Part shown: positions 23,793 to 42,263 of the stretch, piece after piece
How positions within the stretch are numbered: the first letter of the stretch is position 1
Layout: each line of letters starts with the position of its first letter
Origin: Candidatus Methylomirabilales bacterium
Lineage (GTDB): Bacteria; Methylomirabilota; Methylomirabilia; Methylomirabilales; CSP1-5
Reading direction: 5' to 3'
Length of the DNA stretch: 58,964 nucleotides
Assembly: GCA_046758505.1 (NCBI GenBank)
Contig: JBHIAH010000010.1
Span: 1 to 58,964 of the forward strand
The notes under the pieces: model-generated
Seen by the model: only the letters and a program-made list of their open reading frames with translations
What the model was told of the DNA's origin: nothing
Databases searched by the model: none
Position numbers and translations under genes: made by a program

Positions 23793-24536
23793 TCACAGCC
23801 GTTTCCACAGCCAGGCGGGCGTAAGGGTGATGAAGTAGCTATTCAGGATTGTCAAATATCCGGTGAAAAGGAGGATCCCGATCAGGACGAGGAAGAGGCC
23901 GCTGGAGATCTCCACCAGCCGCATATACGGGTGGAACCGCTGAAAAAACCGGCTGAAGCGGTCCACGGCCAGAGCGCTCAAGAAGAAGGGGACTCCCAGG
24001 CCGAGCGAATACACGGCCAAGAGGGTCACCCCCTTCCCTCCTGTCGCGGAGGATCCCGCCAGCGTCAGGATGGACCCCAGGATCGGCCCGATACAGGGAG
24101 TCCACCCGGCCCCGAAGGCCACCCCGACCAGGACCGACCCCAGATATCCCGCGGGGCGATTTTCAAATTGTAGCCGATGCTCGCGCATCAGAAACGGCAG
24201 CTTCAAGATTCCGGTGATATGCAATCCGAAAACGATGATGACGATTCCCCCGATCTTCCGGACGAGGGCGATCGAGCCGAGGAGGAGCTGTCCCAGCAGG
24301 GTGAAGGAGGCGCCCAGGGCGATGAAGACCACGGAAAAGCCCAGGATGAAAAGCGCGGCGTTGAGGAGGATGGCGCTTCGGACCACGGCTGTCCGGCCCG
24401 CTTTCATGTCCCCAAGGGACATGCCGGCCACGAAAGAAAGGTAGGACGGGACGAGAGGCAGCACGCACGGAGAGAGAAACGAAAAGAGCCCCGCTGTCAA
24501 GGCCACCACCGAGGTCACATCCACGGCTTGCGCCAT
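23793..24536 (-). CDS. ccdA: Cytochrome c biogenesis/disulfide transporter CcdA
   Basis: SFLSPCVLPLVP and GWTPCIGPILG. Confidence 0.93.
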   Translation of the reverse strand: MAQAVDVTSVVALTAGLFSFLSPCVLPLVPSYLSFVAGMSLGDMKAGRTAVVRSAILLNAALFILGFSVVFIALGASFTLLGQLLLGSIALVRKIGGIVIIVFGLHITGILKLPFLMREHRLQFENRPAGYLGSVLVGVAFGAGWTPCIGPILGSILTLAGSSATGGKGVTLLAVYSLGLGVPFFLSALAVDRFSRFFQRFHPYMRLVEISSGLFLVLIGILLFTGYLTILNSYFITLTPAWLWKRL

Positions 24537-24712
24537 CCTGCCTCTCCTTGGTCTGTGCTCAATACCCGCATTTTACCCTGTTTCGGTAGAAGCCCACAGG
24601 AAGAACCGCCCCTCTGCATTTCGGGCCGCGTCCCCCCACGGCTCGCTGGCTGAGGCTGCTTCCGGCCACGATGGGTGCGTCGAGTCCGTGGGTCACTGTG
24701 CGCGTCCCGACC

Positions 24713-25249
24713 TCATCGTAACAGGTCCTCGAGCATTTTGGTTGACTCGCCGTCGGTCCAGTCACGATAGCCGAGTTCTCGAAAGCGGATCACGCCATCT
24801 TTGTCCACGAGAAAACTTGCGGGGATGGCGAAGATCCGGAACTGGCCGAGGGTTTTCATGTCCGGATCCAGAAGGGCGGGGAAGGTAAGTTTGAACTGCT
24901 CCATGAAGTTTTTCACTATGCTTTTGGGGCCGGCATCAATGCTGACAGCCAGGATCTCGAACCCATCGCGATTATAGGCCTGGTAGGCCCGTTCCATCGT
25001 GGACATCTCCAGTCGGCACGGAGGGCACCAGGTGGCCCAGAAGTTGATGAAGACCGCCTTCTTGCCGCGGAAGTTTGAAAGCCGAACTGGTGTGCCCCGC
25101 AGATTTGGCAGCGTGAAATCCGGTGCTCGGTGTCCCACCGCCGGCCTTGGGTCTTGAGCCCCGGCCTCTGGTCCTGCGGCAGCCAAGAATAAGGAACTGC
25201 CGACCAGGACGGCCCCGAGTAAATACCACCGCGAATATCGATTCTGCAT
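24713..25249 (-). CDS. TlpA/ResA-family thiol-disulfide oxidoreductase
   Basis: INFWATWCPPC; close paralog of 5354-5896. Confidence 0.92.
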   Translation of the reverse strand: MQNRYSRWYLLGAVLVGSSLFLAAAGPEAGAQDPRPAVGHRAPDFTLPNLRGTPVRLSNFRGKKAVFINFWATWCPPCRLEMSTMERAYQAYNRDGFEILAVSIDAGPKSIVKNFMEQFKLTFPALLDPDMKTLGQFRIFAIPASFLVDKDGVIRFRELGYRDWTDGESTKMLEDLLR

Positions 25250-25270
25250 TCTTTCCCCCTCCCGATCCCT

Positions 25271-25837
25271 CTATGCCTTCAGGATACTCTCCGGGTACTG
25301 CTCATCCGGGTCCACCCCCGGCTGCATGACATACACGATTGACTTATCCACTAGCAGGTCACCCTCCGGGCTCAGGATCATCTGCACGCGGTCCATGGGC
25401 CGGGGCGCCGGCCCTTCAAAGTTGAATCCATCCATGTAATAGCCGCTGCCATGGCAGGGGCACTTGTACTTGCGGTCTGCCGGGATCCAGTTCGGGGTGC
25501 ACCCCAGGTGGGTACAGATCGCCAGCATGGTAAAAAAGCTCCCATCCTCGTACCGGACAATCCAGACTCGATGGGATTTCTTGTGGCGGGTGTCGACCGT
25601 CCCTGGTTGATACGTATCTGGCCGACCGGCATTGAATCGGGGGCTCGGCTCGAACAGGACCCGGGGAAACATGAAGCGAATAAAGGCGATCGAAACTGTG
25701 GATAGGAAGGCCAACACCCCGCCCCAGGCCGTCAGGGATAAAAAGTCCCGCCGGGACCAGGTGGTGGCCTCAGAGATCTCCGCATCCGGTTGGGTGGAAA
25801 TCCTCTCTTTCACCGGATCCTTTACCATGGTCGACAT
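25271..25837 (-). CDS. Tat-exported Rieske [2Fe-2S] protein
   Basis: SRRDFL, CTHLGC, CPCHGS; close paralog of 9819-10385. Confidence 0.93.
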   Translation of the reverse strand: MSTMVKDPVKERISTQPDAEISEATTWSRRDFLSLTAWGGVLAFLSTVSIAFIRFMFPRVLFEPSPRFNAGRPDTYQPGTVDTRHKKSHRVWIVRYEDGSFFTMLAICTHLGCTPNWIPADRKYKCPCHGSGYYMDGFNFEGPAPRPMDRVQMILSPEGDLLVDKSIVYVMQPGVDPDEQYPESILKA

Positions 25838-25955
25838 GCGTACGTCTCCTTTACGCCTCGCAGGGACAAATGGGGGAGCTTCTTGCCGATAGTTTTATGA
25901 AGAAGAGGGTGGCCCCTTGAACCCGATTTTGGAAATAGGTTCCCCGTCAGGTGCC

Positions 25956-26333
25956 TTACGGTTTCGCCACCGCCTCAACGACCTCCACCTTGTAGTCTTT
26001 CACCTTTTGAATGTCCGGGCCGACGATGTCCAGAAACTCGACGTCAAAGGCGGCCACGTCGCCCGGCTTGAGTTCGCGGCTGAAGACCCTGCCAAAGGCG
26101 GTGGAGAGGAGCCGATTATCCCTCTCGAAGGCCGCTCCTTTGATCCGGACGCGGGCAAGGATGACGGTTGACTGGTTTTCTGCCGTTCCCGGGATGTGGA
26201 AGTGTTGCTGGGCGCACATGAAAGGGGACTGGATCGTGAGTTTGACCTTGCCCCGGTAATCCTGGCCCGCCTCGGCTCGAAGACTCCCGAGCACCGTGAC
26301 GGCAAGGGCTAAGAACACGAGTCGTTTTACCAT
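25956..26333 (-). CDS. Secreted FxLYD-like beta-sandwich protein
   Basis: Signal peptide, GTAEN...LKPGD...F pattern; GGAGGAGG RBS. Confidence 0.55.
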   Translation of the reverse strand: MVKRLVFLALAVTVLGSLRAEAGQDYRGKVKLTIQSPFMCAQQHFHIPGTAENQSTVILARVRIKGAAFERDNRLLSTAFGRVFSRELKPGDVAAFDVEFLDIVGPDIQKVKDYKVEVVEAVAKP

Positions 26334-26419
26334 AATGTTTCCTCCTCCTGACGGTGTGGGTAAGCCCTCATTTCCGGGGCAGGGGGCTGGCCTCCTTGCG
26401 TACGATCTTGCCCTCCCCG

Positions 26420-26811
26420 TTATGTCTTATGTCCCGGGCTTAGTGACTCCAAAGCCTCCACGAGATTAAGAGGGGTGGTCATGCGGGCCTCTGGGTTCAT
26501 GATCGACTCGGCGAAGTATTCCGACGGATGCATGGGCCCCATCTGTCTCAGCTCGGGGCCCACGGCTTCCCCGCCGGGGTCCAAGAAGTCCTCTCCAATC
26601 ACCTCGTGACAGGAATAGCACTCAAACTTGGCGAACCCCCCCTGCCTTTCGAGGGATCTCCCTGAGGGAGGGTAAAACGCCACCCTCTGGGATAATGCAT
26701 CTCGCTTTTCGCGCGTCGGCCTTGTTCTCCTCCAGCTCTTGCCGGTCCCTGCCAGAGAGTCAACATGAGGAGAAAGACCAGACCCGGGCATACTTGCTCT
26801 CTTTGTTGCAA
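26420..26811 (-). pseudogene. Frameshifted c-type cytochrome
   Basis: Signal peptide + WRFTLPQGDPSKGR in one frame, FAKFECYSCH...GPEL in another; the junction is a G7 run (26636-26642). Confidence 0.75.
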
Positions 26812-28140: not shown

Positions 28141-31100
28141 TTACCGTGGTCCGGTGGCCGGGGCATCCGTGGCCGACTCTGTCGAACCCCCGTGGGCCCC
28201 GCCGCGAACCGGCGTGGGTGCCAGCTCCAGGAATTCCCCCCGTTCCACGATCAGCTGGTGTTGCCAGGCCTCTTCGGGGTCCCAGCCCCACTTCAGGTAG
28301 AGGGTGGGAACCACGAGCATGTTGAGGAATGTCGAGGTGGCCAGGCCGCCGAGGATGACGTACGCCATGGGTCGCTCCAGCTCCTTGCCGGCGATGTCGC
28401 CGAAGAGGAGGGGGAGAAGGCCGAGCCCGGCCGCGGCAGCCGTCATCAGGATGGGGGCCAACCGCTCCATCGAGCCCTCGACGACTGTTGCCTCTCGGTC
28501 AAGTCCCTCGGCCCGGAGCTGGCGGTAGCGGCTCACCAGGAGGATCCCGTTCCGGGCAGCGATGCCGAAGACCCCGATGAGACCGATGATCGAGGGAATG
28601 CTCATGATTCTGTCCGTGAGGAAGATGGCTACTACCCCCCCGATGAGGGCAAGGGGGAGGTTGGCCATGACCAGCAACGCCGCCCTGGAAGAATTGAAGG
28701 TCTTGTAGAGGAGCAAAAAGATGGCCACAAGGGCCACCGCGCCGTAGTTCAGCAAGATCCGGGTGGCCTGCTGCTGGCTCTTGAACTGCCCGCCGTACTC
28801 GATAAAGTAACCAGGCGGCAGATCGACCCCCTCTTGGATCTTCTGCTGCGCCTCGGCAATGACGCTTCCCAGATCCCGCCCGGCCACGTTGGACTGGACG
28901 ACGATCCGTCGCTGGACCCGTTCCCGGTTGATGAAATACGGCCGGTTCTCGATGGCCACCTCGGCGACCTGGCTGAGCGGGACCCTTCGTCCCCCTGGCG
29001 CGTCAACCAGGACGTTCCGCATGGCCCGGACATCGCGCCGCGACGGCTCGTCGAACCAGAGGAAGAGGTCAAAGCTCTTCTGTCCCTCAATCACCCGGGA
29101 GATGATTTCGCCGTTGAACGCGATCTGTGCCGTCTCGAGAACATCTCCAGCATTGAGTCCTAAACGAGCGGCCCGGTCGCGCTTCACCTTGATTCGGACT
29201 TCCGGGACCCGGATCTGCTGCTCGAGCTGCAAGTCGGTGGTTCCTTTGATCCCGGCGAGGACAGCCTCCACTTGCTGCCCTTTCTCCAGCAGGCGGTCCA
29301 AGTCAGGGCCATAGATCTTGATCGCGATCTGCGCTCGGACTCCAGAGAGGACCTCATCAAGGCGGTGAGCGATGAACTGACCGAGGTTCACCGCCACCCC
29401 GGGAATCTTCTCTAGATCTTCTCGAATGAGGTGAATCAGCTCCTCCGGGTCTCGCTCGCCATAGTGGAGGAGAATGTCAAACTCGATGAAGTTGGGGGGC
29501 ATCGCATCCTCGTCCATCTCGGCCCGCCCGGCCCGCTGGGAGATCGAGGCCACCTCCGGGTATTTCCGAAGCATGGTGGTGATCCGATCGCCCAGACGCA
29601 TCGACTCCCGGAGCGACGTCCCGGGAAGGCTCGTCACCGCCAGGATGAAGTTCCCCTCGTGAAACTCCGGGAGAAAAGAGCGGCCGAGAAAGGGGATCAG
29701 GGCCACGCTGATCCCCAGTAAGACGATCGAAATGACGACCACGACGCGCGGATGCTGGAGCGCCGGCCGCAGGAGACGCTCGTATCCAGCCTTGAGGAGG
29801 CGGATGGTGGCACTCTCCCGCTCCGGCTCGGGGTGGCTTGCGCCTCTGGACTTCGTGAGAAGGAAAGCACACAGGACGGGGGTCAAGGTCACCGCAACAG
29901 CAAGGGAGGTGAGGAGGGAAGCAGCAAAGGCCAGCCCAAGGGGGGTGAGAATTCGCCCCTCCACCCCGCTCAGCAGAAAGATAGGACCAAAGACCACCAG
30001 GATGATCCAGGTGGCGTAAACCACCGAGTCCTTGATCTCGTGGGAGGCCAGGAAGATCACCTTGAGGGGATGGTCCGGTCTTGCCTTCGCCCGGTTTTCC
30101 ATGAGGCGGCGAAAGATGACCTCGACGTAAATGATAGCATTATCCACCACCACACCGATGGCGATCGCAAGCCCCCCTAATGTCATGGCATTGATCCCCA
30201 CACCGAAAGCCTTGAGGATCAGGATGCCTAGTAGGAGAGACAGGGGCATAGCGGTCAGCGTGATGACGGAGGCCCGGACGTTGAAGAGGAAGAAAACCAC
30301 CACGATGGTGACGACGACCGCGCCTTCGATGAGGGCCCGACGGAGGTTCTGGATCGATGACTCGATGAAGTTGGCCTGGCGGAAGACCTGGGCGTGCATC
30401 GCGATTCCCTGGGGGAGGGTCTGCCGGATGTCCTCGAGGGCGCGCTCCACCTCTTGGGTGACGGTCAGGGTGTCGGCCCCAAACAGCTTGGAGATGGTGC
30501 CGATGACCGCCGGTTTACCCATATAGGCCGCATCACCCCGGGGGAACTCCGGGCCGGACTTCACGTTCGCCACGCGGTCCAGGGTGATCGGAATACCGCC
30601 GTGCTCGGCCACGACCGTCTTTTTCAGTTCCTCGAGGGAGGCGATCCGTCCGGCGCCGGTGACCACATACTCCTCTCCCGGGACCACGAGGAAGCCCCCG
30701 GGAACATTTACATTGGCTTGCTTCACCGCCTCCACGACATCATGGACGGTGACGTTGTACCGCAGAAGCTCCTCAGAGGAGAGGAGGACCTGATACTGCT
30801 TCGGGCCAGGGCCCATGCAGACCACCGACGCGACCCCTCGGATGGCCAGGATCCGATTCCGGATGTCCCAATCGCATAACGTCCGAACGTCGAGCGGAGA
30901 AACAGTCTCACTCTGCAGGGCGAACTTGACCAGCCAGCTCACCGCCGAGGTGATGGGGAGCATGACCGGGGCCTCCGTTCCCGGGGGGAATTGCTCTCGC
31001 ACCTCCTGAAGCCGTTCATTCACGAGCTGCCGGGCCGTGTAAATGTCGGTCCCCAACTCAAAGACGATAATGACGGTAGAGAGTCCAGCCGACGTCTTGG

Positions 31101-31350
31101 ATCGAACCACATCCACACCGGGGGTGCCGTTCACTGCTGCCTCGATGGGGAACGTGATAAGGGTTTCCACATCTTCCGGGCTCAGCCCGGGGGCCTGAGT
31201 CTGGATGACGACCTGTGGTGGTGCAAATTCGGGCAGGACATCCAGGGTCATCTGCCGGACGACAAAGACGCCGACGAACAGGAGGATGACATAGGCCACC
31301 ACCGTGAGCATCCGGTTCCGGAGGGACCATTTCGTGATCCAGTCAAACAT
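28141..31350 (-). CDS. CusA/CzcA-family heavy-metal efflux RND permease
   Basis: 1069 aa; DVLPEF, NAMTLGGLAIAIGVVVDNAI, ERLAPILMTA. Confidence 0.95.
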   Translation of the reverse strand: MFDWITKWSLRNRMLTVVAYVILLFVGVFVVRQMTLDVLPEFAPPQVVIQTQAPGLSPEDVETLITFPIEAAVNGTPGVDVVRSKTSAGLSTVIIVFELGTDIYTARQLVNERLQEVREQFPPGTEAPVMLPITSAVSWLVKFALQSETVSPLDVRTLCDWDIRNRILAIRGVASVVCMGPGPKQYQVLLSSEELLRYNVTVHDVVEAVKQANVNVPGGFLVVPGEEYVVTGAGRIASLEELKKTVVAEHGGIPITLDRVANVKSGPEFPRGDAAYMGKPAVIGTISKLFGADTLTVTQEVERALEDIRQTLPQGIAMHAQVFRQANFIESSIQNLRRALIEGAVVVTIVVVFFLFNVRASVITLTAMPLSLLLGILILKAFGVGINAMTLGGLAIAIGVVVDNAIIYVEVIFRRLMENRAKARPDHPLKVIFLASHEIKDSVVYATWIILVVFGPIFLLSGVEGRILTPLGLAFAASLLTSLAVAVTLTPVLCAFLLTKSRGASHPEPERESATIRLLKAGYERLLRPALQHPRVVVVISIVLLGISVALIPFLGRSFLPEFHEGNFILAVTSLPGTSLRESMRLGDRITTMLRKYPEVASISQRAGRAEMDEDAMPPNFIEFDILLHYGERDPEELIHLIREDLEKIPGVAVNLGQFIAHRLDEVLSGVRAQIAIKIYGPDLDRLLEKGQQVEAVLAGIKGTTDLQLEQQIRVPEVRIKVKRDRAARLGLNAGDVLETAQIAFNGEIISRVIEGQKSFDLFLWFDEPSRRDVRAMRNVLVDAPGGRRVPLSQVAEVAIENRPYFINRERVQRRIVVQSNVAGRDLGSVIAEAQQKIQEGVDLPPGYFIEYGGQFKSQQQATRILLNYGAVALVAIFLLLYKTFNSSRAALLVMANLPLALIGGVVAIFLTDRIMSIPSIIGLIGVFGIAARNGILLVSRYRQLRAEGLDREATVVEGSMERLAPILMTAAAAGLGLLPLLFGDIAGKELERPMAYVILGGLATSTFLNMLVVPTLYLKWGWDPEEAWQHQLIVERGEFLELAPTPVRGGAHGGSTESATDAPATGPR

Positions 31351-31362
31351 GCCGTCTCCTCC

Positions 31363-31513
31363 CTTCGACGACCGACGACCTATGACGAAACTGGAAAATG
31401 GAAAGTAGAAATTTCCAATTTCCCTTTTCCGTTTTCTTTTCCTAAAACCATGAACCCTGGTCCCTGAACCAGCTCATGGGTCATCGGTCGTCGGACATCG
31501 GTCAGTGGTCAGT
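31363..31513. repeat. Nested inverted arrays of degenerate heptamers
   Basis: CGACGAC/CGACCGA arm vs TCGGTCG TCGGACA TCGGTCA arm; inner GGAAAAT GGAAAGT vs TCCAATT TCCCTTT TCCGTTT. Confidence 0.65.
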
Positions 31514-32819
31514 GCCCGTGGCCCCCCAATGCGGGTCCACCCCGCTGGGACGTGAGATACTTGGTGTACAGCTGCCTTTTGCCGTCGGTCACTACCTGTT
31601 CCCCCGAGCGGAGCCCCTCTTTCACCCCCACGTAGCGATCATCTCGGGCCCCCAAGACGAGATCACGCCGGACGAAAACCCCTTCCTGCTCCACGAACGC
31701 AAAGTCCTCCCCCTCGGCACTGATCAGGGCCTCGAGCGGAATGGCCACGGTCTGGTGGCTTCCTCCCACAACAACCCCCAGATCAACGAACAAATCCTGC
31801 TTGAGCATCCCGTGGTGGTTACTTATCTCGGCCCAGACATGGACTGTTCGCTTCTCGGGGTCTACCGTCGTGCTAATAAAGGTGATCCGGCCCTCAAAGA
31901 TCTGCTTAGGCAAGGCGGGAGCCCGCACCCGCACCAGCTGCCCCAGCCTGAGGAGGGGAAGGGTATCCTCGAAGGCATCCCCTTCTACGATCACGACCGA
32001 GTCGTCCAGGAGTTTGAAAAGGGGCTGACCGGGCTCGATGGCTTGTCCCAGGATGACGCTACGCTCCACCACGGTGCCTGCGATCGGCGCATCGAGGTGG
32101 AGTGTCGAGACCGTCTTTTCCTGGCGAACCTTCCGGATTCCTGCCTCGGTGATACCCAGCAGGCTGAGCTGTCGGGTGAGGCTTTCGATCTCGTTCAGCA
32201 CAGCCCGATGTTGGTTCTCAGCCGCCAGCAGGTCTTTTTTGGCAGCGATGCCTTTCTCGACCAGGGCTCGCATCCGCTCCAGGTCCGCCTGGGCCAGCGC
32301 GAGTTTGTTCTCGGCCTGGATCAGATCCAGCTCACTTTTCTCCAACTCGAGGCTTTGTACATCCGCCAAGTCCTGTCCCTTCTTGACCCGCGTGCCGAGC
32401 TTGACGTGGATCGCTACGGCCCGGCCGGCCACCCGGCTGGTGACCAGTGCGACCCGGTCGGGATGGGGCTTCACCACCCCGTTGAGGAGCCGGACATCCT
32501 CCACCTGGCGCAGCTCGACCGGAACGGTTTTCAGTCCGATATTGACTTGCTCCGCTTGGGAGAGCGCCACCTTTCCCAATGCAGATTCCTGCGCCTCGGG
32601 ATGCGGTTCTTCATGGCCAGGGGGTTCTTTCTCCTGGTGTTCCGTGACGGCTGTTTCCTCTCCCCGGTCGTGTCCTTTTTCGCTGGCCATTGCGTGCGGG
32701 ACGACCTTGGCCTGTGGCTTTCCCGGTTCCCGAGAGCAGGCGGTGAGCCCTGGCACGAAGAACAGCAGGGGAATCACAAGAGAGACCGTGACCCGAGAAA
32801 TCCATTCGCTCCCTTTCAC
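31509..32819 (-). CDS. CzcB/CusB-family RND membrane fusion protein
   Basis: His/Glu-rich N-terminus, APIAGTV, VDPEKRT, GLRSGEQVV, C-terminal GHGH. Confidence 0.93.
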   Translation of the reverse strand: MKGSEWISRVTVSLVIPLLFFVPGLTACSREPGKPQAKVVPHAMASEKGHDRGEETAVTEHQEKEPPGHEEPHPEAQESALGKVALSQAEQVNIGLKTVPVELRQVEDVRLLNGVVKPHPDRVALVTSRVAGRAVAIHVKLGTRVKKGQDLADVQSLELEKSELDLIQAENKLALAQADLERMRALVEKGIAAKKDLLAAENQHRAVLNEIESLTRQLSLLGITEAGIRKVRQEKTVSTLHLDAPIAGTVVERSVILGQAIEPGQPLFKLLDDSVVIVEGDAFEDTLPLLRLGQLVRVRAPALPKQIFEGRITFISTTVDPEKRTVHVWAEISNHHGMLKQDLFVDLGVVVGGSHQTVAIPLEALISAEGEDFAFVEQEGVFVRRDLVLGARDDRYVGVKEGLRSGEQVVTDGKRQLYTKYLTSQRGGPALGGHGH

Positions 32820-34189
32820 CGTCGGTATCCTTTCTGTCTGCTGGTCTGTGTAAAATATCCGACAGGCTTCAGACCAGACCCTGGTTTCCGGCCAGCCGGC
32901 TTGAGCATCGTTAATCCCGTTGCTCGCCGCAGTTCCGCCACAGCGGTGTTGAACTCGCCAATGGCCTCCAGATAATCGAATCGAACGTCGGTGAGCTCCC
33001 GCTGGGCGAGGAGCACGTCGGAAAGGCCGAACTGGCCCAGGGTGTATCCTTCCCTGAGGAGACGGAAGTTCTGCTCCTGCTGCGGGAGAATATGCTGCAC
33101 GTACTCCTCGACAATCTGCTGCGAACTCTGGAACTGTCCGAACGCAGTTGCTACCTCCGTCTTGATCTGCGATCGGATAAGGGCAACCTGGGCTTCCTGT
33201 TTCAGGCCCTCGGCGAGCGCCGCCTCGAGTTCTCCCTGCCGGCGATTGAAGAGGGGGAGGGGGATCGCTACCTCCAGGATGCCGCGCCGCTCTCGCTCGT
33301 CCAGGGCGTGGTCCTCCTCGTAGCGGAGGGCTAGCTCTACCTCCGGAAACAACCGTTCGGCCCGAACCAGACTCACGCTGTGGCGAACGGTTTGCAATCC
33401 GGCCGTGGCCGCGTTGAGGTCGGGGCGCAGCTCGAGGGCCTGCTGGAGCAGCGCAGCCCGGGTCCCCGGCAGCTCGGGCAGGAGCAGGGGGCCGTCGGCC
33501 CGGAGGGGAGCATCGGGGGCTCGGCCGAGGCGGAGATTGAGATGCTTGCGGGTGGCTGCGGCCCGCCGCTCCTCGGCAACCCGTCGGGTGAGGGCACGCC
33601 GGAGCTCCACATCCGCCCGGAGCAGGTCGAGACGCGGCACCTCCCCTGCCTCAAACTGTTTGCGGGCAGTCTCTCGCGTCTCTTCGGCGAGGGCCACTGT
33701 CTGCTGTGCCAGCTTGAGCCGCTCCTGGGCCTGAAGGAGCTCGCCAAAGGCGCCCATCACGTCGGCCAGGACGCGCCGCTCCGCGTCCCGGACCTCCCAC
33801 TCGGTCTCTTGCAACTTTGCCGTGGCGATGTTGGTCCGGAGGCCGCGTTGCCCCCGAATTTCCACGGTCTGAGAAAGGCCGACGGCGAAACCCCCAACCG
33901 TCCGCCGCTCCACCGGGCTCTCCTTGCTCCGGGACCGTCCGCCATTCCCTTCCAGCTCTAGGGCGGGGTTGAAGGGGTAGATCTGAGCCTGCATGAGTTC
34001 ACCCCGGGCGACCCCCAGATCCCGGCGGACGACCTGCAGTTCCGGGTTGTTCTGGAGGGCCTCATTCAGCGCCGCTTCTAGGGTGAGGCTTCCTCTCGAT
34101 TTTGGCTGGCCACTGACAGGGGCTGCGAAGAGGATAAGCGCTGCCAGCACGCCATACGTGATTCGTTGGGATATCGTCTTTCTTCGCAT
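32816..34189 (-). CDS. TolC/CzcC-family outer-membrane efflux protein
   Basis: LTLEAAL...NPEL, RPDL, IPLPLFNRRQG; GGAGG RBS before ATG 34189. Confidence 0.93.
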   Translation of the reverse strand: MRRKTISQRITYGVLAALILFAAPVSGQPKSRGSLTLEAALNEALQNNPELQVVRRDLGVARGELMQAQIYPFNPALELEGNGGRSRSKESPVERRTVGGFAVGLSQTVEIRGQRGLRTNIATAKLQETEWEVRDAERRVLADVMGAFGELLQAQERLKLAQQTVALAEETRETARKQFEAGEVPRLDLLRADVELRRALTRRVAEERRAAATRKHLNLRLGRAPDAPLRADGPLLLPELPGTRAALLQQALELRPDLNAATAGLQTVRHSVSLVRAERLFPEVELALRYEEDHALDERERRGILEVAIPLPLFNRRQGELEAALAEGLKQEAQVALIRSQIKTEVATAFGQFQSSQQIVEEYVQHILPQQEQNFRLLREGYTLGQFGLSDVLLAQRELTDVRFDYLEAIGEFNTAVAELRRATGLTMLKPAGRKPGSGLKPVGYFTQTSRQKGYRR

Positions 34190-34354
34190 TACCGGTCCTC
34201 CCGCAATGGCCGACCAGCGAACCAGGTGGGCCACCGCTCCGGTGGACAACAAGGTGACATTCACTCCCCCCCCGGGCGCGAGGGGGTCTGAGTGTCTTCG
34301 TATTCAGGTTCTCAATAGTGTTGGGGAGCGGTAAAAGAAAAAGCGACGGGGTGC

Positions 34355-34627
34355 TTAGCCGCGGGGAGGTGGGAAAGGAGGTGTAAGCGTTACGCCTTTG
34401 TGGAAGGCGTCCTCCTCTGTGCCGAGCGAAGAAGCGAGGAGTAGCCTGTGCGGATCCGATTGGCCTTCGCACGGGACCACGGAGGTCCCGCAGGTTTGAG
34501 CCGTGAGAGTCACCGTCGATGGCGCGCTGGACCCGTGATGGCTGCCGTTGAGATCGGCAGTGAGACACAGCCCGAGGCCTGCCAAGAAACCACACACCAC
34601 AATGTACACCGTCCACTTACGTATCAA
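34355..34627 (-). CDS. Small secreted leader-like ORF ending PPFPPPRG upstream of the efflux operon
   Basis: Hydrophobic N-terminus, HH, two Cys, Pro-rich C-terminus; start uncertain. Confidence 0.55.
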   Translation of the reverse strand: MIRKWTVYIVVCGFLAGLGLCLTADLNGSHHGSSAPSTVTLTAQTCGTSVVPCEGQSDPHRLLLASSLGTEEDAFHKGVTLTPPFPPPRG

Positions 34628-34829
34628 CTCCGCTCCTTCAGCACCCTGGGTCCGACAGGCTTTCGCGGATTGAAGAGGCGCGGAATCCTCCAGCCGTTTT
34701 TTCCCTTGTAGCGTGCCTACCTCAAGTTTGTCAAGCCAATGTTTGGGCGAGGGGATCTCCCTGAAGGACCCGGCCAGCGCCGTGGGGGAGGGTAACTCCT
34801 TACGGTTCTTCTCCTCCCCCATCATGCTT

Positions 34830-35138
34830 TCAAATCACCCAGAAGCGGAGCACCGGGGCGAGCCAGAAGAGGAGCACCAAGAGCGTCGAGCCCCATAAAA
34901 GCCACCGGTGCCACTGGGGCCCTCGTCTCTTGACAAAATGGAAGTAGTAGCCCAGCCCCAGGAAAAAGAAGGACAGGGGTAAGAAGTAGACTCGATATGC
35001 CGCCAGACCGGCGGCCAAGCCTCCGCTGAACACTCCGGCGCCCGCGAAGACCAAGGCCAGGACTCATCACGTGTTGGGCAGCAAGGCGAGGATGACCGAC
35101 CCGATGCCTGCAAGCGGACCTTTCAATTCTCTGGTCAT
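34830..35138 (-). CDS. MerT-like membrane transporter, predicted selenoprotein with tandem UU
   Basis: MTRELKGPLAGIGSVILALLPNT-TGA-TGA-VLALVFAGAG...YRVYFLPLS; TGA TGA at 35069-35064 where MerT has CC; GGAG RBS; downstream hairpin 35013-35058. Confidence 0.8.
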
Positions 35139-35433
35139 GACGCTTCTCCCCTTCCGCCGCCGTGGCATGATCTGCCCCGCTCATGGGCGGAGCTGCCCCC
35201 GAGTTCCGTTTCGCCGCCTCGGTTGTGGATGGACACAATCTTTCCGCTTGAAGAGCCCATGCTTGAGGTGGACCAGGTCGTCACATCCAGTGGTAAGTCC
35301 GTACCGATTGGCAATTTCCTCTAATGCCTTCCACGTTCCTCCTGAACGCTGGAGCCTCGGACCGAGCCGGAGGGCCAGCTTGGCTTACGGGGGACCGACG
35401 AAAGGAGGCCAAGCAAAGCTGAAAAGAGAGTGG

Positions 35434-35940
35434 TTATCTTTGGCGCTGCCGTTGCGCGGCCTTGGGCCCCGTTCGTCGGATGGCAAATCGAATCTCCTGG
35501 GCAGAGATAAAGCCCTCTACGGGGGGAGCCTCGCAATTGCAGGCTTCACCCCGAAGGGGACGGCATGAGGTGTCGAGCTGGTTACGCGCTACCTCCAGTT
35601 CTTCCCTTAGAAGTAATAGTTCCCGGACCTTCTCGTTGACGAATCGAAGATAGTCAGAGATGGCCTCTTGGACCCGCGGACGCAGGTTCCCGCAGTCCTC
35701 CCATTCGGCCAGAGGGAGAAGATCCCGGATGCGGGCCAAGGGGAGGCCCACGTCTTTCGCCCGTTTAACGAAAAGTAATCGGCCGATATCGGCTTCCTCA
35801 TAAAGCCGGTACCCGGACGCACTCCGCCGGGGTTGGGGCAGGAGGCCCAGGCGCTCATAGTACCGAACTGCCTTGCGGGTGACCCGACCCCGCTTGGCCA
35901 ACTCTCCGATACGAAGGAAACCGTCCTTTGGCATGAACAT
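35434..35940 (-). CDS. MerR-family metal-responsive regulator
   Basis: LRIGELAK...VRYYERLGLL...GYRLY; Cys in DCG and C...CNC. Confidence 0.92.
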   Translation of the reverse strand: MFMPKDGFLRIGELAKRGRVTRKAVRYYERLGLLPQPRRSASGYRLYEEADIGRLLFVKRAKDVGLPLARIRDLLPLAEWEDCGNLRPRVQEAISDYLRFVNEKVRELLLLREELEVARNQLDTSCRPLRGEACNCEAPPVEGFISAQEIRFAIRRTGPKAAQRQRQR

Positions 35941-35959
35941 ATGCCCTTTCTCGTGAGGA

Positions 35960-36955
35960 TTAATTATATATTAATGTCTGCGTGGCCGCGTATTGGTATT
36001 TTATCTTGATCTGCAACAGTCCGAAGATTCCGGCGACCGTCAACCCGGAAAAGATGGCGGCCAGCAGGACGATGCCACTGAGCAGCAGCGCGACGCGCCA
36101 TCCCACCATGGTGCGATAATACCAGATGCGTTGCGGTGCGGCCGCAGCGGTAAACCAAAAGGCCACCAGCCCGGCCAGGGCCATTCCGCCCCTCCAGAGA
36201 TACGTCCCGATCAGGAGGTTTGCAATGGGGGGAGCAAAGGAGAGGAGGCCGATCCCGACACCCATCAGGGCATTCAGGAACTGCCCCTGCCACCCACCTC
36301 CGGTGAGCGTGACGGGAAAGATCCAGGAGGGCTTGATCGCCACCGCCGCCAAAAAGCCTGCGGCGACAAAGCCGTAAAGCAGCCGCCACCCGCTCGCCGC
36401 CACTTCTCGCCCGATGAGCCGAAGAGCCAGTTCTCCCCATCGAAGAGGCAATGATCCCCTGGTTTGACTCGGCGGGATGGCTAGGTCGGTCAGATCCGCC
36501 TCTGGCGAGGGGATTGCGGAGACCTCGCTTCGCCTAAGCTGACTTCCCAAGGGGATAAATAGGCCGAGGAAGACGATTACCCCTATCGCGTAGGCGAGCA
36601 GGAATTCCTTTCCAAGCAAGGGCGGGAGCAGGAAAACATAGAACAACAAATAGTGGGCGCCCCCGATAAATGCCAGGAGATCCCGCCACCGGTCAGCGGC
36701 GAGGAAGGTCCGGGCAATGCGGGTGAAGGCGGCGTGGGAGGTGCACCCCGCCCCAACCACAAGGGGGGTCAGAATGCCTCGGAGCCCACCCGATGAGCCG
36801 CCTTGGAGAGCCCGGAGCCTGGCCGGACGAAAAGCGAGGCTGTGGACCGCCACTGCTCCGAGGAAGACCCAAATAAGGATTCCCCGGGCAAAGACCACCA
36901 CCAGGTAGTAAAAGGTCACCCAGGCCCACTTCAGACTTTCCCCCAAAAGGGCCAC
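35960..36955 (-). CDS. Predicted permease (DUF318/ArsP-like)
   Basis: Multi-TM protein, GAGC motif, paralog architecture with 38778-39806. Confidence 0.65.
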   Translation of the reverse strand: MALLGESLKWAWVTFYYLVVVFARGILIWVFLGAVAVHSLAFRPARLRALQGGSSGGLRGILTPLVVGAGCTSHAAFTRIARTFLAADRWRDLLAFIGGAHYLLFYVFLLPPLLGKEFLLAYAIGVIVFLGLFIPLGSQLRRSEVSAIPSPEADLTDLAIPPSQTRGSLPLRWGELALRLIGREVAASGWRLLYGFVAAGFLAAVAIKPSWIFPVTLTGGGWQGQFLNALMGVGIGLLSFAPPIANLLIGTYLWRGGMALAGLVAFWFTAAAAPQRIWYYRTMVGWRVALLLSGIVLLAAIFSGLTVAGIFGLLQIKIKYQYAATQTLIYN

Positions 36956-37018: not shown

Positions 37019-37552
37019 CTACGGTTGCCCCATCCTATGCCGACTTACCAGAAGGCTCGCGAGCTCGCCTGCCGCCAGGTCTCGGTACTGGACCTCTCCC
37101 ACCAGGGTGACCTTGGCATCTGTTGCCGCCGCGTCCTTCTTTAATTCCGCCAGGGCAGATCCAGATCGGAGGAGGAAGGGCTGCTCGGTCCCTGCAACCA
37201 CAAAGCGCAGCTGTCCCTCTCCGGTGATGCTCGCGGTCCCCACGGCCTTGATCTCTAAGGCATCGAGGGTGATTCCGCTGTCCCTCACCTTGCGCTCGAT
37301 CAGCTGGGGATCGAGGGTGAAGGTCGAGCGCGGGATGATCTGGATCCAGCCTCGGTTCAGATCGACTTTTACGTTGGCTACGCCATCCAGGCGCAGTAGG
37401 GTCTGTTGGACCCCGTACGCTCAGAAATTTCAGGTCATGCCATGGACGCGCAGCGTGACCTCCTGGATCTCCGCCCTGACCGGGGAAGTGAGCAGGCCGA
37501 ATCCCAGCAACAGCGCCCCCAGGCTTCTTTGAAAGATCCTTTTGCCCCTCAT
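37019..37552 (-). CDS. Secreted HMA-domain protein, predicted double selenoprotein (GMT-U-NF-U-AYG)
   Basis: ATG 37552 with GGAGGGAG RBS, signal peptide; TGA at 37432-37430 and 37423-37421 in the CxxC positions; frame continues to 177 aa. Confidence 0.85.
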
Positions 37553-37578: not shown

Positions 37579-38466
37579 TTAAAAGAACTGGTAGCTCACG
37601 CTGAAGATAACGCGTAAGTCGAACTCCGCCTGCTCGCCGTTGAGGTCTTGGGCCACAGGGATCTGTCCCGCCAGGGAGAGGTTCAACTGGGGGATTGGCC
37701 GGTAGAAGAGAAAAGGGTCGGCAAAGAGGACAGTGCCTCCCGAGTTTCGTTGCCCCACCCCGTTCAGCTCACTACGCCCGGCGAATTCTGCGGTCAGCCC
37801 GAGACCGATTCCCAGCTCCGGCCCGGGAAAGGGGGCCTGGTAAATCCGGTGGCTAAAGCTCACGTCGAGGACCAAGAGATCCCCGGCTTCGAAATCCTGT
37901 GCCCCCTCGGTGTTGAGCTTGTAAAAGAGGCTGCCGTTCAGGGCCGAGCGGCCCAGGATGGTGGTGTTGGCCAAACCGAAGATCCCATTCACTGCTCCCA
38001 GGCCGGGCTGGAGCGCCGGCGGCAAACGTTTTCCTCCATCTTTCTGATCCGTGGCCCCGGTAGGGAGTTCCACCCCCCCAAAGACCGAGAACTGCACGCT
38101 GGTCCGAAAGGCATCGTGCTTGAAGAAACGGTATTTCCCCAGGAGGATCAGGTCCCCCGGTCCGAAGGCTTCCTCGACCCGCCCTGAGCGCTCCCGGCGC
38201 TTGTAGACTACCGGGATGGTCCCTCCGATCACCAGATCGTGGAGGGGGGAGTAACTAAAGGAGGTGACGTTTCTCAACCCATCCGTCTCTTGGCCCGCTC
38301 CGCTCCGGCTGGAGAAGATGGTGGCGTTGCTCACGATCTTGCCCACCTCAAAGATGGTCACGCCGGTTCGGGCATCGACTCCCTGGGCCCAACCGTTGAC
38401 GGGTACGGAGAGGGTTGCTCCCGCAGTAGCGACCAAGAGCGCCCAAACCGCTTCTCGCCTTGCCAT
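37579..38466 (-). CDS. Outer-membrane beta-barrel 'transporter' (SphA/MetA-pathway-like)
   Basis: Signal peptide, GPGDLIL-x-GKY, ELPTG, LQPGLG, terminal SYQFF. Confidence 0.8.
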   Translation of the reverse strand: MARREAVWALLVATAGATLSVPVNGWAQGVDARTGVTIFEVGKIVSNATIFSSRSGAGQETDGLRNVTSFSYSPLHDLVIGGTIPVVYKRRERSGRVEEAFGPGDLILLGKYRFFKHDAFRTSVQFSVFGGVELPTGATDQKDGGKRLPPALQPGLGAVNGIFGLANTTILGRSALNGSLFYKLNTEGAQDFEAGDLLVLDVSFSHRIYQAPFPGPELGIGLGLTAEFAGRSELNGVGQRNSGGTVLFADPFLFYRPIPQLNLSLAGQIPVAQDLNGEQAEFDLRVIFSVSYQFF

Positions 38467-38499
38467 CCCTCCCTCCAAGGCCTCTGGATTCCCAGGTCC

Positions 38500-38777: not shown

Positions 38778-39806
38778 TTAGAAGCCCAAGGCGGGCAAGA
38801 TTTTGCTGATCAGCTTAAGCGGGGGGAGGTCGGGGCGAAAACCGAACAGCGCGTAGATCCAGGTGGAGCCGAGGCCGCCGAGGATAGCGGCAGCGTACAG
38901 GAGGCCGACCAGGATCAGCCCCTGCTTCCCCCCAAAGGTCCTGAAATAGATTCGCACGTCCCGGGGGTGGATCGCGCTGGCCAGGCAGAAACTGATGATC
39001 CCGGGATAGGCAAGGCCATCGGTCTTGAACAGAGCATGGATCACCGGGAGGTTTCCCACGGGGGAGAGGAACATGATCGCAGAGAAGGCAGGACTGGCCA
39101 GGGCATTGAGCAGGTCAGAGGCAGGAGTTTTACGGCCCATGATGTCCGCGAAGATGATCCACCAGGACTCTAGCCCGGCCGCAAAGATGAGCCCTCCCAG
39201 GATGATCCCTACGACAAGCGTCGGTGTGAATCGCCGTACCTCGTGCCCGATGAATTTCAGCATAGCCCACCATCCCTCAAGGGAGAGGAGGAGGGCGCGC
39301 CAGCAAGGGAAGCTGGCCAGATCGAGGACGAATGTATTGCTCTCCGCCTTTCCCATGGCCGGGGTGGCAAGCACTGGTGGTCGAAGCCAGTTGAGACCCA
39401 GGGCAACAACGCCGATCATCACCAGTGCCCCGAGCACCTGCCCCGTGGCAAATTCTGCGCCCAGCGACAGGGCAAAGATCGCCCAGAAGTGGATCGTCAT
39501 GTTCCGGCTGGCAATCAGGTAGGCGAAGGCCGTGGCCGGGGAGCGGCCACGCTTGAGCAGCTCCCATGCGGCCTGCCGGCTGATCTCGCGGTCCGCACTC
39601 CCCACGATGCCCGCCTTCATAGCCCGCCAGATGCTTGGCCCTGCCGTTGATGGACTTTCGAGAAGTCTGTCCCATGTGGAGCGGCGGTACCGCAGGGTCA
39701 GGAGGGCGGCTACGAGAAAGCCCGGAACCCACACCGTGTAGAAGAGGGTCATGAACTTAAACAACTCGATCGTGAAAAACCAGGCCTGTTGCCAAAAAAG
39801 CGCCAT
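38778..39806 (-). CDS. Predicted permease (DUF318/ArsP-like)
   Basis: Multi-TM protein; AFAYLIASRN, SPVGNLP, GIISF motifs. Confidence 0.7.
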   Translation of the reverse strand: MALFWQQAWFFTIELFKFMTLFYTVWVPGFLVAALLTLRYRRSTWDRLLESPSTAGPSIWRAMKAGIVGSADREISRQAAWELLKRGRSPATAFAYLIASRNMTIHFWAIFALSLGAEFATGQVLGALVMIGVVALGLNWLRPPVLATPAMGKAESNTFVLDLASFPCWRALLLSLEGWWAMLKFIGHEVRRFTPTLVVGIILGGLIFAAGLESWWIIFADIMGRKTPASDLLNALASPAFSAIMFLSPVGNLPVIHALFKTDGLAYPGIISFCLASAIHPRDVRIYFRTFGGKQGLILVGLLYAAAILGGLGSTWIYALFGFRPDLPPLKLISKILPALGF

Positions 39807-40796: not shown

Positions 40797-41306
40797 TTAA
40801 CGGATCTGAAACTGCTCGATCCGGGCCGCCTCCTCCCCTTCCGGGATCTGCCCTACAATAAAGATGGACTCGCCCTCCTGGCCGGCGGCCTTCTTCAGCG
40901 CCTCCAGCTTCTCATCACTGACAAGGGGGATGACCTGGTCCGTCCCCTTCACCTTGAAGGCCGGGCTCCCGTCTCGGGTGGTAAGCTGTCCCACCGCCTC
41001 GAACCGGATCCAGGTCGGGGTAAACCCCGAATCAACGACGGCCTTCCGGAGCTCCTCGACCTTCAGAGGCTGTCCCTCCTTGAGTTGGATGTCCGCCCGT
41101 GCTTTCTTGAGACTTGCCTTCACTTTGTCCACGCCATCCAGGCGTGAGAGGCCCTTTTGGGCCCCATACGCTCAGATGGGTCATATCATCCCGTCGATAC
41201 CCATCTGGACCGAGGAGATCTGTGCCTGGGCCAGTGGGGGATCGGCCAGCGTGGCGAAGAGGCTCATTGCAACGAGCAGGCTGAGAAATACGGCGAGCTT
41301 TCGCAT
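40797..41306 (-). CDS. Secreted HMA-domain protein, predicted double selenoprotein (GMI-U-PI-U-AYG)
   Basis: ATG 41306 with AGGAG RBS, signal peptide; TGA at 41183-41181 and 41174-41172; paralog of 37019-37552. Confidence 0.85.
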
Positions 41307-41321: not shown

Positions 41322-42206
41322 CTAAAAGAGGTATCGGAATCCAAACAGCACGGTATAGTCGGGTTCCAGTCGGCCGCTCGGGAAGTCGTTGACGATCGGG
41401 ATCTGGACCCCTGTCTCGAAGAGCAGGTTCCCGGTGACGATGTACTGGATTCCGGGGGAAATAAAGAGCACGGTCCCGCCGGTGTTGATGTCTTTTCCGT
41501 CGATCGCGTTGTCGCCGGAGGTCCGGCCGTTGAACTCGATGCCCAGATTGAGCTGGGCGGGGGGCGTCGGCCATTCGGGGTACGTCTGATAGGCCAGGTA
41601 GAGGTCGTACAGCAAGACGTTCCCGAACTGAAAGTCCTTCGCCTCGGAGTTGATCTTGCCCCGAAGCGCCGCCTCGATGCTGTACCAGCTTCGGGTGGTA
41701 CCGGCAGCGATCCCCACGATGCCGTCCACGCCGCCCGAGCCGAGCTGGAGTGCGGGGGCTGCCGTGAGCCCGGGTCCCTTACTGGTGGAGCCCGAAGGGA
41801 GTTCGAGGCCGCCGATGACGGCCAGTTGGTCGCGGCCGAAGGGGAGATCTCGCCGATAGAAGGTGTACTTGCCGAAGAGAGTGATATCCCCGATGCCGCT
41901 GGCGTCGAAGGTCCCTGTGGGGGTTTCCAAGTGCTTGTTGACATATGGGACAGTCAGATTCAGCGTCGCGTTGGTCGCCAGGGCGTAGGAAAAGATGGCC
42001 GGGGCCGTCCAGACCTTGAGTTCCTTGCCTCCGCCTTCGAGCCTCTGGAATTGCCCGAAGGACCGCACCGCCGTCCCCAGAAAGAACTGAGTCCGGGGGC
42101 TTGCGCCGAAGATGGGGGCTGCCAGCACGCGGGCCGGCAGAAGGCCAACCCCGATAATCAATAGACCCATTTTCCAGCCCGTTCGGATCGCTCTCCGCTG
42201 CTGCAT
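41322..42206 (-). CDS. Outer-membrane beta-barrel 'transporter' (SphA/MetA-pathway-like)
   Basis: GIGDITLFGKY, ELPSG, LQLGSG, terminal FRYLF; paralog of 37579-38466. Confidence 0.8.
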   Translation of the reverse strand: MQQRRAIRTGWKMGLLIIGVGLLPARVLAAPIFGASPRTQFFLGTAVRSFGQFQRLEGGGKELKVWTAPAIFSYALATNATLNLTVPYVNKHLETPTGTFDASGIGDITLFGKYTFYRRDLPFGRDQLAVIGGLELPSGSTSKGPGLTAAPALQLGSGGVDGIVGIAAGTTRSWYSIEAALRGKINSEAKDFQFGNVLLYDLYLAYQTYPEWPTPPAQLNLGIEFNGRTSGDNAIDGKDINTGGTVLFISPGIQYIVTGNLLFETGVQIPIVNDFPSGRLEPDYTVLFGFRYLF

Positions 42207-42263
42207 AGATTCCCTCCGTAAGCTCATCACGGACGTGGTGGATAGCATTTAGAACATTCCCTC

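Follow-up and report, generated by a model that had tools for sequence, protein, structure and literature searches.

The stretch of DNA analyzed here, called the window below, comprises all 58,964 nt of contig JBHIAH010000010.1 from a Candidatus Methylomirabilales bacterium (assembly GCA_046758505.1). Its minus strand carries, at positions 34830..35138, a 102-codon frame that runs from an ATG at 35138 to a TGA stop at 34832-34830 and contains two adjacent in-frame TGA codons, codons 24 and 25, at 35069-35064. The frame reads MTRELKGPLAGIGSVILALLPNT, TGA-TGA, and then VLALVFAGAGVFSGGLAAGLAAYRVYFLPLSFFFLGLGYYFHFVKRRGPQWHRWLLWGSTLLVLLFWLAPVLRFWVI (VLALVFAGAGV... directly after the pair). When codons 24 and 25 are read as selenocysteine (Sec), the coding sequence, which includes the terminal TGA, specifies a MerT-like membrane protein of 102 residues, and the tandem UGA-UGA (35064..35069, minus strand), proposed to encode Sec24-Sec25, falls, in the alignment with MerT-family proteins, on their vicinal Cys-Cys in the first transmembrane helix (TM1). 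A Shine-Dalgarno-like sequence, GGAAGGGGAG, is located on the same strand (35146..35155), with 7 nt between its end and the ATG. An earlier note on this DNA had described this start codon, a ribosome-binding site (RBS) and the frame LLPNT-TGA-TGA-VLALVF, and all three are borne out on reading the DNA. We regard it as probable that this is a real gene, truncated in the databases, for a three-helix inner-membrane protein of the MerT superfamily, 102 residues long, in which the Cys-Cys of TM1 is replaced by Sec-Sec.

The TGA pair is not an assembly slip, because four separately assembled DNA runs (Logan) contain the region 34300-36000 in single contigs with 0 differences; all four are from a single study, and the present DNA may derive from them. 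Two of them, X3 and X4, contain, besides the identical contig, short contigs that are 90-95% alike over the pair region (34927-35110), which suggests that close relatives co-occur in these samples. TGA is an ordinary stop codon here, because it ends 13 of the 37 open frames of at least 300 codons in the window. The C-terminus is fixed by two relatives (G012a and L052), which stop at the same position with a non-TGA stop (TAA or TAG).

Both TGA codons are retained in all nine distinct sequences of alignment A4, which consists of the window sequence and its relatives at loci L002, L021, L003, L049, L050, L051, L052, and L004, and which extends down to 49% identity (L004). The close relatives read LPN[AT]-TGA-TGA-VLA, and the relative with 49% identity reads IPNL-TGA-TGA-VIA; the pair is also present in one further, weak and more distant match (G034b). 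A six-frame search of 61 related genomes with a Cys-substituted query gave matches in 20 genomes; six of the matches contain two in-frame TGAs, and two contain one. Four further distinct sequences and one duplicate came from scans of two public collections, and the pair is present in all of them; the genome-contig scan, in which the Cys-coded pattern was unable to match TGA, returned only 2 loci, and of the 5 loci from the metagenome scan, 2 are unrelated. The record titles of two A4 sequences name Binatia (L049) and Methylomirabilales, respectively. To judge by these sequences, the conservation of the TGA pair exceeds chance. The same data bear on the possibility that the gene is a decaying pseudogene with nonsense mutations at the Cys-Cys codons. 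That the gene can be lost is shown by genome G003, in which no more than its last 43 codons are left. However, the occurrence of the same two TGAs in nine distinct sequences from several genomes, including the Binatia-titled record, the absence of other stops or frameshifts, and the purifying-type substitutions on both sides of the pair all speak against decay, which is hardly credible. The locus in G003 (L061, G003:C52) contains the end of a Sec-Sec-type MerT gene with no recognizable N-terminal part and is a probable remnant.

The forms found at this position were surveyed across the phylum with the A4 profile (E ≤ 1e-5), and 27 matches were obtained in 21 of 251 genomes. Five of these matches have two TGAs, six have one, and 16 have none; the five with two TGAs are confined to four genomes of one family. 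When the DNA was read, Cys-Sec (ASACU-IGP) was found in three of the matches and Leu-Sec (FLWVL-U-PA) in five; two of the latter had been counted as having no TGA, since the match began after the Sec. There are also 11 Cys-Cys forms; the remnant in G003 adds a C-terminal part only, and two matches (G229 and G250) were not inspected. The earlier note had named CC, CU, UC, and UU as the combinations to look for among homologs. UU, CU, LU, and CC forms indeed occur at one and the same position, and no Sec-Cys form was seen among the phylum matches whose DNA was read. The Leu-Sec form was found at loci L055-L059 (G182, G180, G151, G085, and G179) in relatives of the same class, and protein cluster P0025 is its truncated product.

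In the databases, this gene appears only as 'hypothetical proteins' of 65-77 residues that begin after the pair, several of them source-named candidate division NC10. In the four closest protein clusters, each of the 32 member sequences begins after the pair, and 14 representative clusters (50% identity, 69-85 residues) begin just after it; the upstream codons of these 14 could be UU, xU, or another combination, except where the DNA of a relative was read. If the annotation were right, the gene would start after the pair and encode a two-helix protein of 74 residues, and the 23 preceding codons would be a leader peptide or non-coding. In favor of such a start, the gene callers agree on all 32 sequences (65-77 residues), a start-capable codon (TTG or GTG) is present as the fourth codon past the pair in 7 of the 10 aligned sequences, and a double stop is normally a firm terminator. 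However, the start-capable codon is not conserved (CTG in L049, CTC in G014 and G034b), and no RBS-like sequence was found ahead of it in the window gene. The 23 upstream codons, in contrast, show coding-type constraint and have their own conserved RBS and ATG or GTG. Within codons 2-23, 55% of the pairwise differences fall on third positions and 16% on second positions; the nucleotide mismatch is 24%, versus 60% (unalignable) in the 60 nt upstream of the start, and an AGGAG or GGGAG box precedes an ATG or GTG at the same place in 8 of 8 close relatives. By these measures, the 22 codons that separate the start from the pair look like coding sequence. Furthermore, the upstream codons align with TM1 of the MerT family, with the pair on the invariant Cys-Cys, so that a truncated product would lose the only invariant residues of the family. 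A start after the pair is thus very improbable, and the database entries that begin there are gene-caller truncations. That annotation misses the full gene, as the earlier note had claimed, was confirmed, because the entries contain only products that start past the TGA pair; conversely, the homologs do not start there, since the 23 prior codons are conserved together with an RBS and a start codon. Because gene callers truncate this family (all 32 members are 'hypothetical proteins'), inventories of metal resistance and of selenoproteomes miss it.

The assignment to the MerT superfamily was based on profile comparisons. A HMMER search of 1.84 billion representatives gave 123 matches at E ≤ 0.001, which form two groups, short ones starting past the pair and full-length or fused ones with Cys-Cys aligned to it. 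Of 12 full-length matches that were scanned, 11 pass the Pfam MerT model (PF02411), and three are MerT-HMA fusions. A profile-profile alignment (hhalign) of A4 with A5, a set of 8 Cys homologs that all exceed the PF02411 cut-off, gave a probability of 99.7% and an E value of 2.5e-25 over 98 columns, with UU on CC; the A5 sequences were picked from matches to the query, so that this evidence is transitive. In alignment A7 (22 sequences), the sole invariant columns are C24, C25, and G35. The predicted protein is, on this evidence, a divergent member of the MerT superfamily beyond the reach of the curated models; membership is assigned because the alignment with PF02411-passing homologs puts the pair on their Cys-Cys. 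The only polar trough of the hydropathy profile is at residues 66-80. The topology is probably N-terminus in, with the basic N-terminus and a basic loop (residues 69-79) in the cytoplasm. Because of this topology, the pair would be located about two thirds along helix 1 towards the periplasm. The same position is generally accepted for the Cys pair of MerT. Weak Pfam matches to DUF1275 and EIID-AGA (E ≤ 10) were rejected as low-complexity helix matches, and a PDB sequence search with the A4 profile gave nothing relevant (best E 0.6, a cytochrome bo3 subunit).

The pair is followed by two conserved hairpins. The first resembles a selenocysteine insertion sequence (SECIS), starts 11 nt after the second UGA, and has 15 bp and a G-containing loop of 4 nt, CGGA in the window (35018..35052, minus strand). 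The second is short, has 7 bp, and follows directly (34999..35015, minus strand; 97% of cells paired). In the window sequence, an outer GGCC/GGCC stem stretches the first hairpin to 35058-35013; the long hairpin that had been noted at these positions from the letters alone is the minimum-free-energy stem-loop of the region, with its conserved core at 35052-35018. In the consensus fold (RNAalifold) of ten Sec-Sec sequences, 93.2% of the cells are paired, versus 41-48% when the 3' partner is slid by 1-3 columns, 7 pairs are changed on both sides, and the observed values are not reached in any of 500 shuffles; these statistics derive the structure from the same alignment that was used for the pair counts, 8 of the 10 sequences are about 75-82% identical, and most of the covariation stems from two divergent sequences. 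A long hairpin is present at the same place in 12 of 12 Sec-containing forms. When the equivalent 54 nt were folded, the 12 Sec forms had a mean of -26.7 kcal/mol (z -1.52), and 17 Cys-Cys forms had a mean of -18.0 kcal/mol (z -0.43), a difference of which the significance is overstated, as the sequences are related and not independent. The neighboring genes for UxxU HMA proteins, which are described below, also have two UGAs, 9 nt apart, with conserved hairpins behind them. Therefore, closely spaced Sec codons served by a downstream structure appear to be usual in this lineage.

The genome encodes the machinery for Sec insertion. The matches to selA (607 bits), selB (333 bits, the match being cut by the contig end), selD (407 bits), and tRNA-Sec (80 bits) are all over their cut-offs. 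The selD gene (L036, G000:C6:7795-8721) has an in-frame TGA of its own at a GAG-U-ACK site, and selenophosphate synthetase is therefore itself a selenoprotein here. A tandem UGA could in principle be read through other than, or not only, as Sec-Sec, by insertion of Cys or Trp, or it could act mainly as a gate through which selenium limits synthesis of the protein. The SECIS of E. coli must lie within a narrow range of distances from the UGA. If similar spacing rules hold here, one hairpin for two UGAs should decode inefficiently; in addition, the single-Sec (LU and CU) and the Cys-Cys forms are evidently functional. Against these possibilities, which we consider quite unlikely, TGA occupies both positions in 9 of 9 sequences, with no mix of Cys and TGA in the subfamily, the Sec machinery is complete and TGA is a stop elsewhere in the genome, and the hairpin is found at the position expected for recruitment of SelB. 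The pair most likely encodes two neighboring selenocysteines.

Several results weigh against the interpretation as a MerT-type Sec-Sec protein, in addition to the limits of the hairpin statistics given above. The window protein remains below every curated cut-off. It has no PF02411 match at E ≤ 10 (cut-off 32.9 bits), no match to this model was found at E ≤ 1 for any of the nine Sec-Sec members or in the whole genome, and its near-full-length match to NCBIfam merT_RC607 reaches 22 bits (E 1.4e-4) with a cut-off of 130 bits. The similarity to MerT that the earlier note had claimed is thus supported by the profile-profile comparison (99.7%), which places UU on CC, but not by a direct match to Pfam MerT. 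The AlphaFold2 model (22-row alignment) has helices at residues 9-44, 46-70, and 76-101, and its confidence is low (predicted local distance difference test 60.7, predicted template modeling score 0.33). The loop between helices 2 and 3 reads VKRRGPQWHRW and contains no Cys. In MerT of Tn501 and Tn21, this loop, which is cytoplasmic, carries a second Cys pair. Two of the PF02411-passing homologs (P0012 and P0029) also lack a Cys pair in this loop. At the RNA level, the hairpin overlaps the coding sequence for a Gly/Ala-rich helix, no SECIS family of Rfam was found in the window, no RNA run was found to contain this stretch, and one hairpin may not suffice for two adjacent UGAs to be decoded efficiently. 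Finally, no MerA over the cut-off was found in the genome, which is 96.8% complete (best match 398.6 versus 454.45 bits), and the best match is devoid of the C-terminal Cys-Cys. Because there is no MerA over the cut-off and no cytoplasmic Cys pair, import of mercury for reduction is unsupported.

The Sec-Sec gene is part of a heavy-metal island in the window, and the neighboring genes listed here are all on the minus strand. Immediately upstream is a gene for a MerR-family metal-responsive regulator (35434..35940) with Cys residues at positions 83, 126, 134, and 136; its scores with the models for MerR, ZntR, CueR, and CadR are about equal, and none reaches the cut-off. Sensors of divalent ions typically have a Cys at the first of these positions. 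The spacer of 295 nt between merR and merT (35139-35433) contains no inverted repeat and, in a consensus scan, no promoter-like site; this negative carries little weight, as promoters of the MerR type are unusually spaced. Further upstream are a divergent ArsP-like permease paralog (35960..36955; 21.6 bits, under the Pfam cut-off, and 28% identical to the permease of L052), a periplasmic HMA protein with the UxxU motif GMTUNFU (HMA protein 2, 37020..37552; a divergent paralog, 34% identical to the relatives), and a barrel-like protein (37579..38478; 34% identical). This divergent set of barrel, HMA, ArsP-like, and MerR genes lies between merT and an ArsP_1-family permease (38778..39806; PF03773, 73.7 bits), which is 79% identical to the permease directly preceding the Sec-Sec MerT gene in L052. 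The orthologous set continues with a periplasmic, signal-peptide-bearing HMA protein with the UxxU motif GMIUPIU (HMA protein 1, 40800..41306), 86% identical to the HMA protein encoded two genes before the Sec-Sec MerT gene of L052, and with a barrel-like protein (41322..42248; 85% identical). In both HMA genes, the metal motif is encoded with UGA-N6-UGA, both proteins extend at the C-terminus by about 70 residues, and the hairpins after the second UGA are conserved in the window, L049, L004, and L052. A frame with PD40/TolB-like repeats (40770-39916, minus strand) is located between the genes for HMA protein 1 and the ArsP_1 permease; in L052, the corresponding two genes have no such frame between them. 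The frame contains one in-frame TGA (40320-40318) within a repeat (GNNA-TGA-PAFSPDG), which could be Sec, a nonsense mutation, or the border of two genes.

Downstream of the Sec-Sec gene, heavy-metal efflux genes of the CusCBA/CzcCBA-type RND class occupy 28141..34264 on the minus strand, with the OEP gene at 32816-34264, the adaptor gene at 31509-32819, and the RND pump gene at 28141-31350; the pump scores 835.5 bits with TIGR00914 (cut-off 701). A frame of 156 codons with no family match is present between the Sec-Sec gene and the OEP gene (34355..34825, minus strand) and may or may not be a gene. The window also encodes two copper-type P1B ATPases, as well as DsbD_TM, thioredoxin-fold, Rieske, and cytochrome c proteins (23793-26791). 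A MerB gene is found on another contig of the genome, beside an ArsR-type regulator.

In the relatives, the Sec-Sec MerT gene belongs to a cassette together with genes for a barrel-like protein, a GMIUPIU-bearing periplasmic HMA protein, and an ArsP_1-type permease. The ArsP_1 permease gene adjoins the Sec-Sec MerT gene in 7 of 8 of the relatives' loci, and the Sec-Sec gene follows the permease gene after about 30-70 nt. The gene for the GMIUPIU HMA protein is found upstream of the Sec-Sec MerT gene in L002, L004, L049, and L052, and OEP-HlyD genes are found downstream of it in L050, L051, and L052. This synteny lends support to the proposed partnership of the Sec-Sec protein with UxxU chaperones. 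The Cys-Sec relatives adjoin a gene for a UxxC MerP-like protein and MerB. In L007 and L024 (G047 and G022), the gene after the Cys-Sec MerT-like gene encodes a MerP-like protein in which the UxxC motif reads GMTUP[GS]C; MerB is also encoded in L024, preceded by genes for an ECF sigma factor and a zf-HC2 anti-sigma factor, and L007 has an ECF sigma factor gene upstream.

The gene context is compatible with the following mechanism. SelB, bound to the single hairpin, would deliver Sec-tRNA(Sec) twice in succession, at codons 14 and 11 nt before the stem. The two selenolates in TM1 would form a very soft metal site of low pKa, and this site may exchange a thiophilic metal ion with the periplasmic UxxU HMA protein by selenolate ligand exchange, as MerP does with MerT; the proposed Sec-Sec/UxxU route would correspond to the thiol relay of MerP and MerT, with selenium in place of sulfur. 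The metal could be Hg(II), or else Cu(I), Ag(I), or Cd(II). Hg(II) is argued for because some relatives are linked to mercury, and Cu(I) or Ag(I) because of the copper ATPases and the Cus-type pump. The direction could be import or, equally possible, a hand-over between permease, HMA protein, and Cus-type pump, and expression in this genome may be governed by the adjacent MerR-type sensor. The full proposal, that one SECIS hairpin drives two SelB insertions and thereby gives rise to a vicinal diselenol in a membrane helix, which forms with the UxxU HMA proteins an all-selenolate relay for a thiophilic metal, coupled to the permease and the Cus-type pump and not to a mercuric reductase, has in our view slightly better than an even chance of being correct. 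Alternatively, a genuine Sec-Sec membrane protein could serve as a redox center or handle selenium or tellurium species and not transport metal. The classical MerT pathway is incomplete, with no cytoplasmic Cys pair and no recognizable MerA, the substrates of the ArsP_1-type family are unsettled (the Pfam name is only 'predicted permease'), and the DsbD_TM, thioredoxin-fold, Rieske, and cytochrome c genes are also present in the window. However, the homology is to MerT-family proteins, the conserved neighbors encode HMA proteins and a CusA/CzcA-type pump, with a MerR-type sensor in the window, and the Cys-Sec relatives are located beside MerP-like and MerB genes, so that a function unrelated to metal transport is unlikely.

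The proposed Sec-Sec protein shares several features with MerT (PF02411; NF010314, NF033560 merT_RC607), that is, a length of about 100-116 residues, three predicted helices, and a ligand pair in the first helix at the same column; as in MerT operons, there are genes for a MerP-like periplasmic HMA protein and a MerR-type regulator in the vicinity. It differs from MerT in having Sec-Sec for Cys-Cys, a chemically analogous pair aligned exactly on the invariant CC column, in the lack of a Cys pair in the loop between helices 2 and 3, and in missing all curated cut-offs. Unlike a mer operon, its gene is linked to an ArsP_1-type permease and a CusCBA-type pump, not to merA. Cys-Sec selenoproteins of the MerT family are known. 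A 'putative mercuric transport protein' is included in the selenoprotein tables of Zhang & Gladyshev, 2007 (PMC1976440) and 2008 (PMC2398784), and MerT-type selenoproteins are included in Table 1 of a 2022 review (PMC9312934). That table gives no motif for them; the motifs that it gives are UxxC, CxxU, UxxU, CxU, UxC, and UGC, with no UU for any family. These known proteins belong to the same superfamily, with selenium at the same metal site, and the CU forms of L007, L024, and L060 align with the window protein. They differ from it in having one Sec, in the motif given as CU in a preprint, whereas the window protein would have Sec at both positions; the CU relatives are also located beside a UxxC MerP-like protein and MerB, not in an ArsP_1/Cus cassette. 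No description of a bacterial Sec-Sec motif was found in the literature searched, with subscription papers and supplements lying outside the search. Adjacent Sec residues would be a test case for the handling of two neighboring UGAs by bacterial SelB with a single SECIS. If the proposal is true, the Sec-Sec membrane site together with the UxxU proteins would mean that some bacteria build a whole metal route on selenium, not on sulfur.

Two curated models exist for metal selenoproteins of the MerT and HMA types, NF045683 (MerT/CopZ fusion-like heavy metal transport selenoprotein) and NF041115 (UxxU metal-binding (seleno)protein). The Sec-Sec MerT-like protein of the window matches neither model (NF045683 at E ≤ 1, with a cut-off of 375 bits). 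With NF041115 (cut-off 95), HMA protein 2 of the window scores 36.7 bits, and the HMA part of a fusion protein encoded at L017 scores 84.7 bits. The window protein differs from the NF045683 type in having no CopZ/HMA domain, whereas the L017 fusion has a Cys-Cys MerT part and Sec in its HMA part. A Binatia-titled locus has MerR, a Cys-Cys MerT, and MerB nearby. In L017 (G034), the Cys-Cys MerT part is fused to an HMA domain with GMTUGTU, and in L008 (G035), the HMA gene, with GMTUGAU, is separate and comes after the MerT part. Selenium is confined to the HMA part in these forms.

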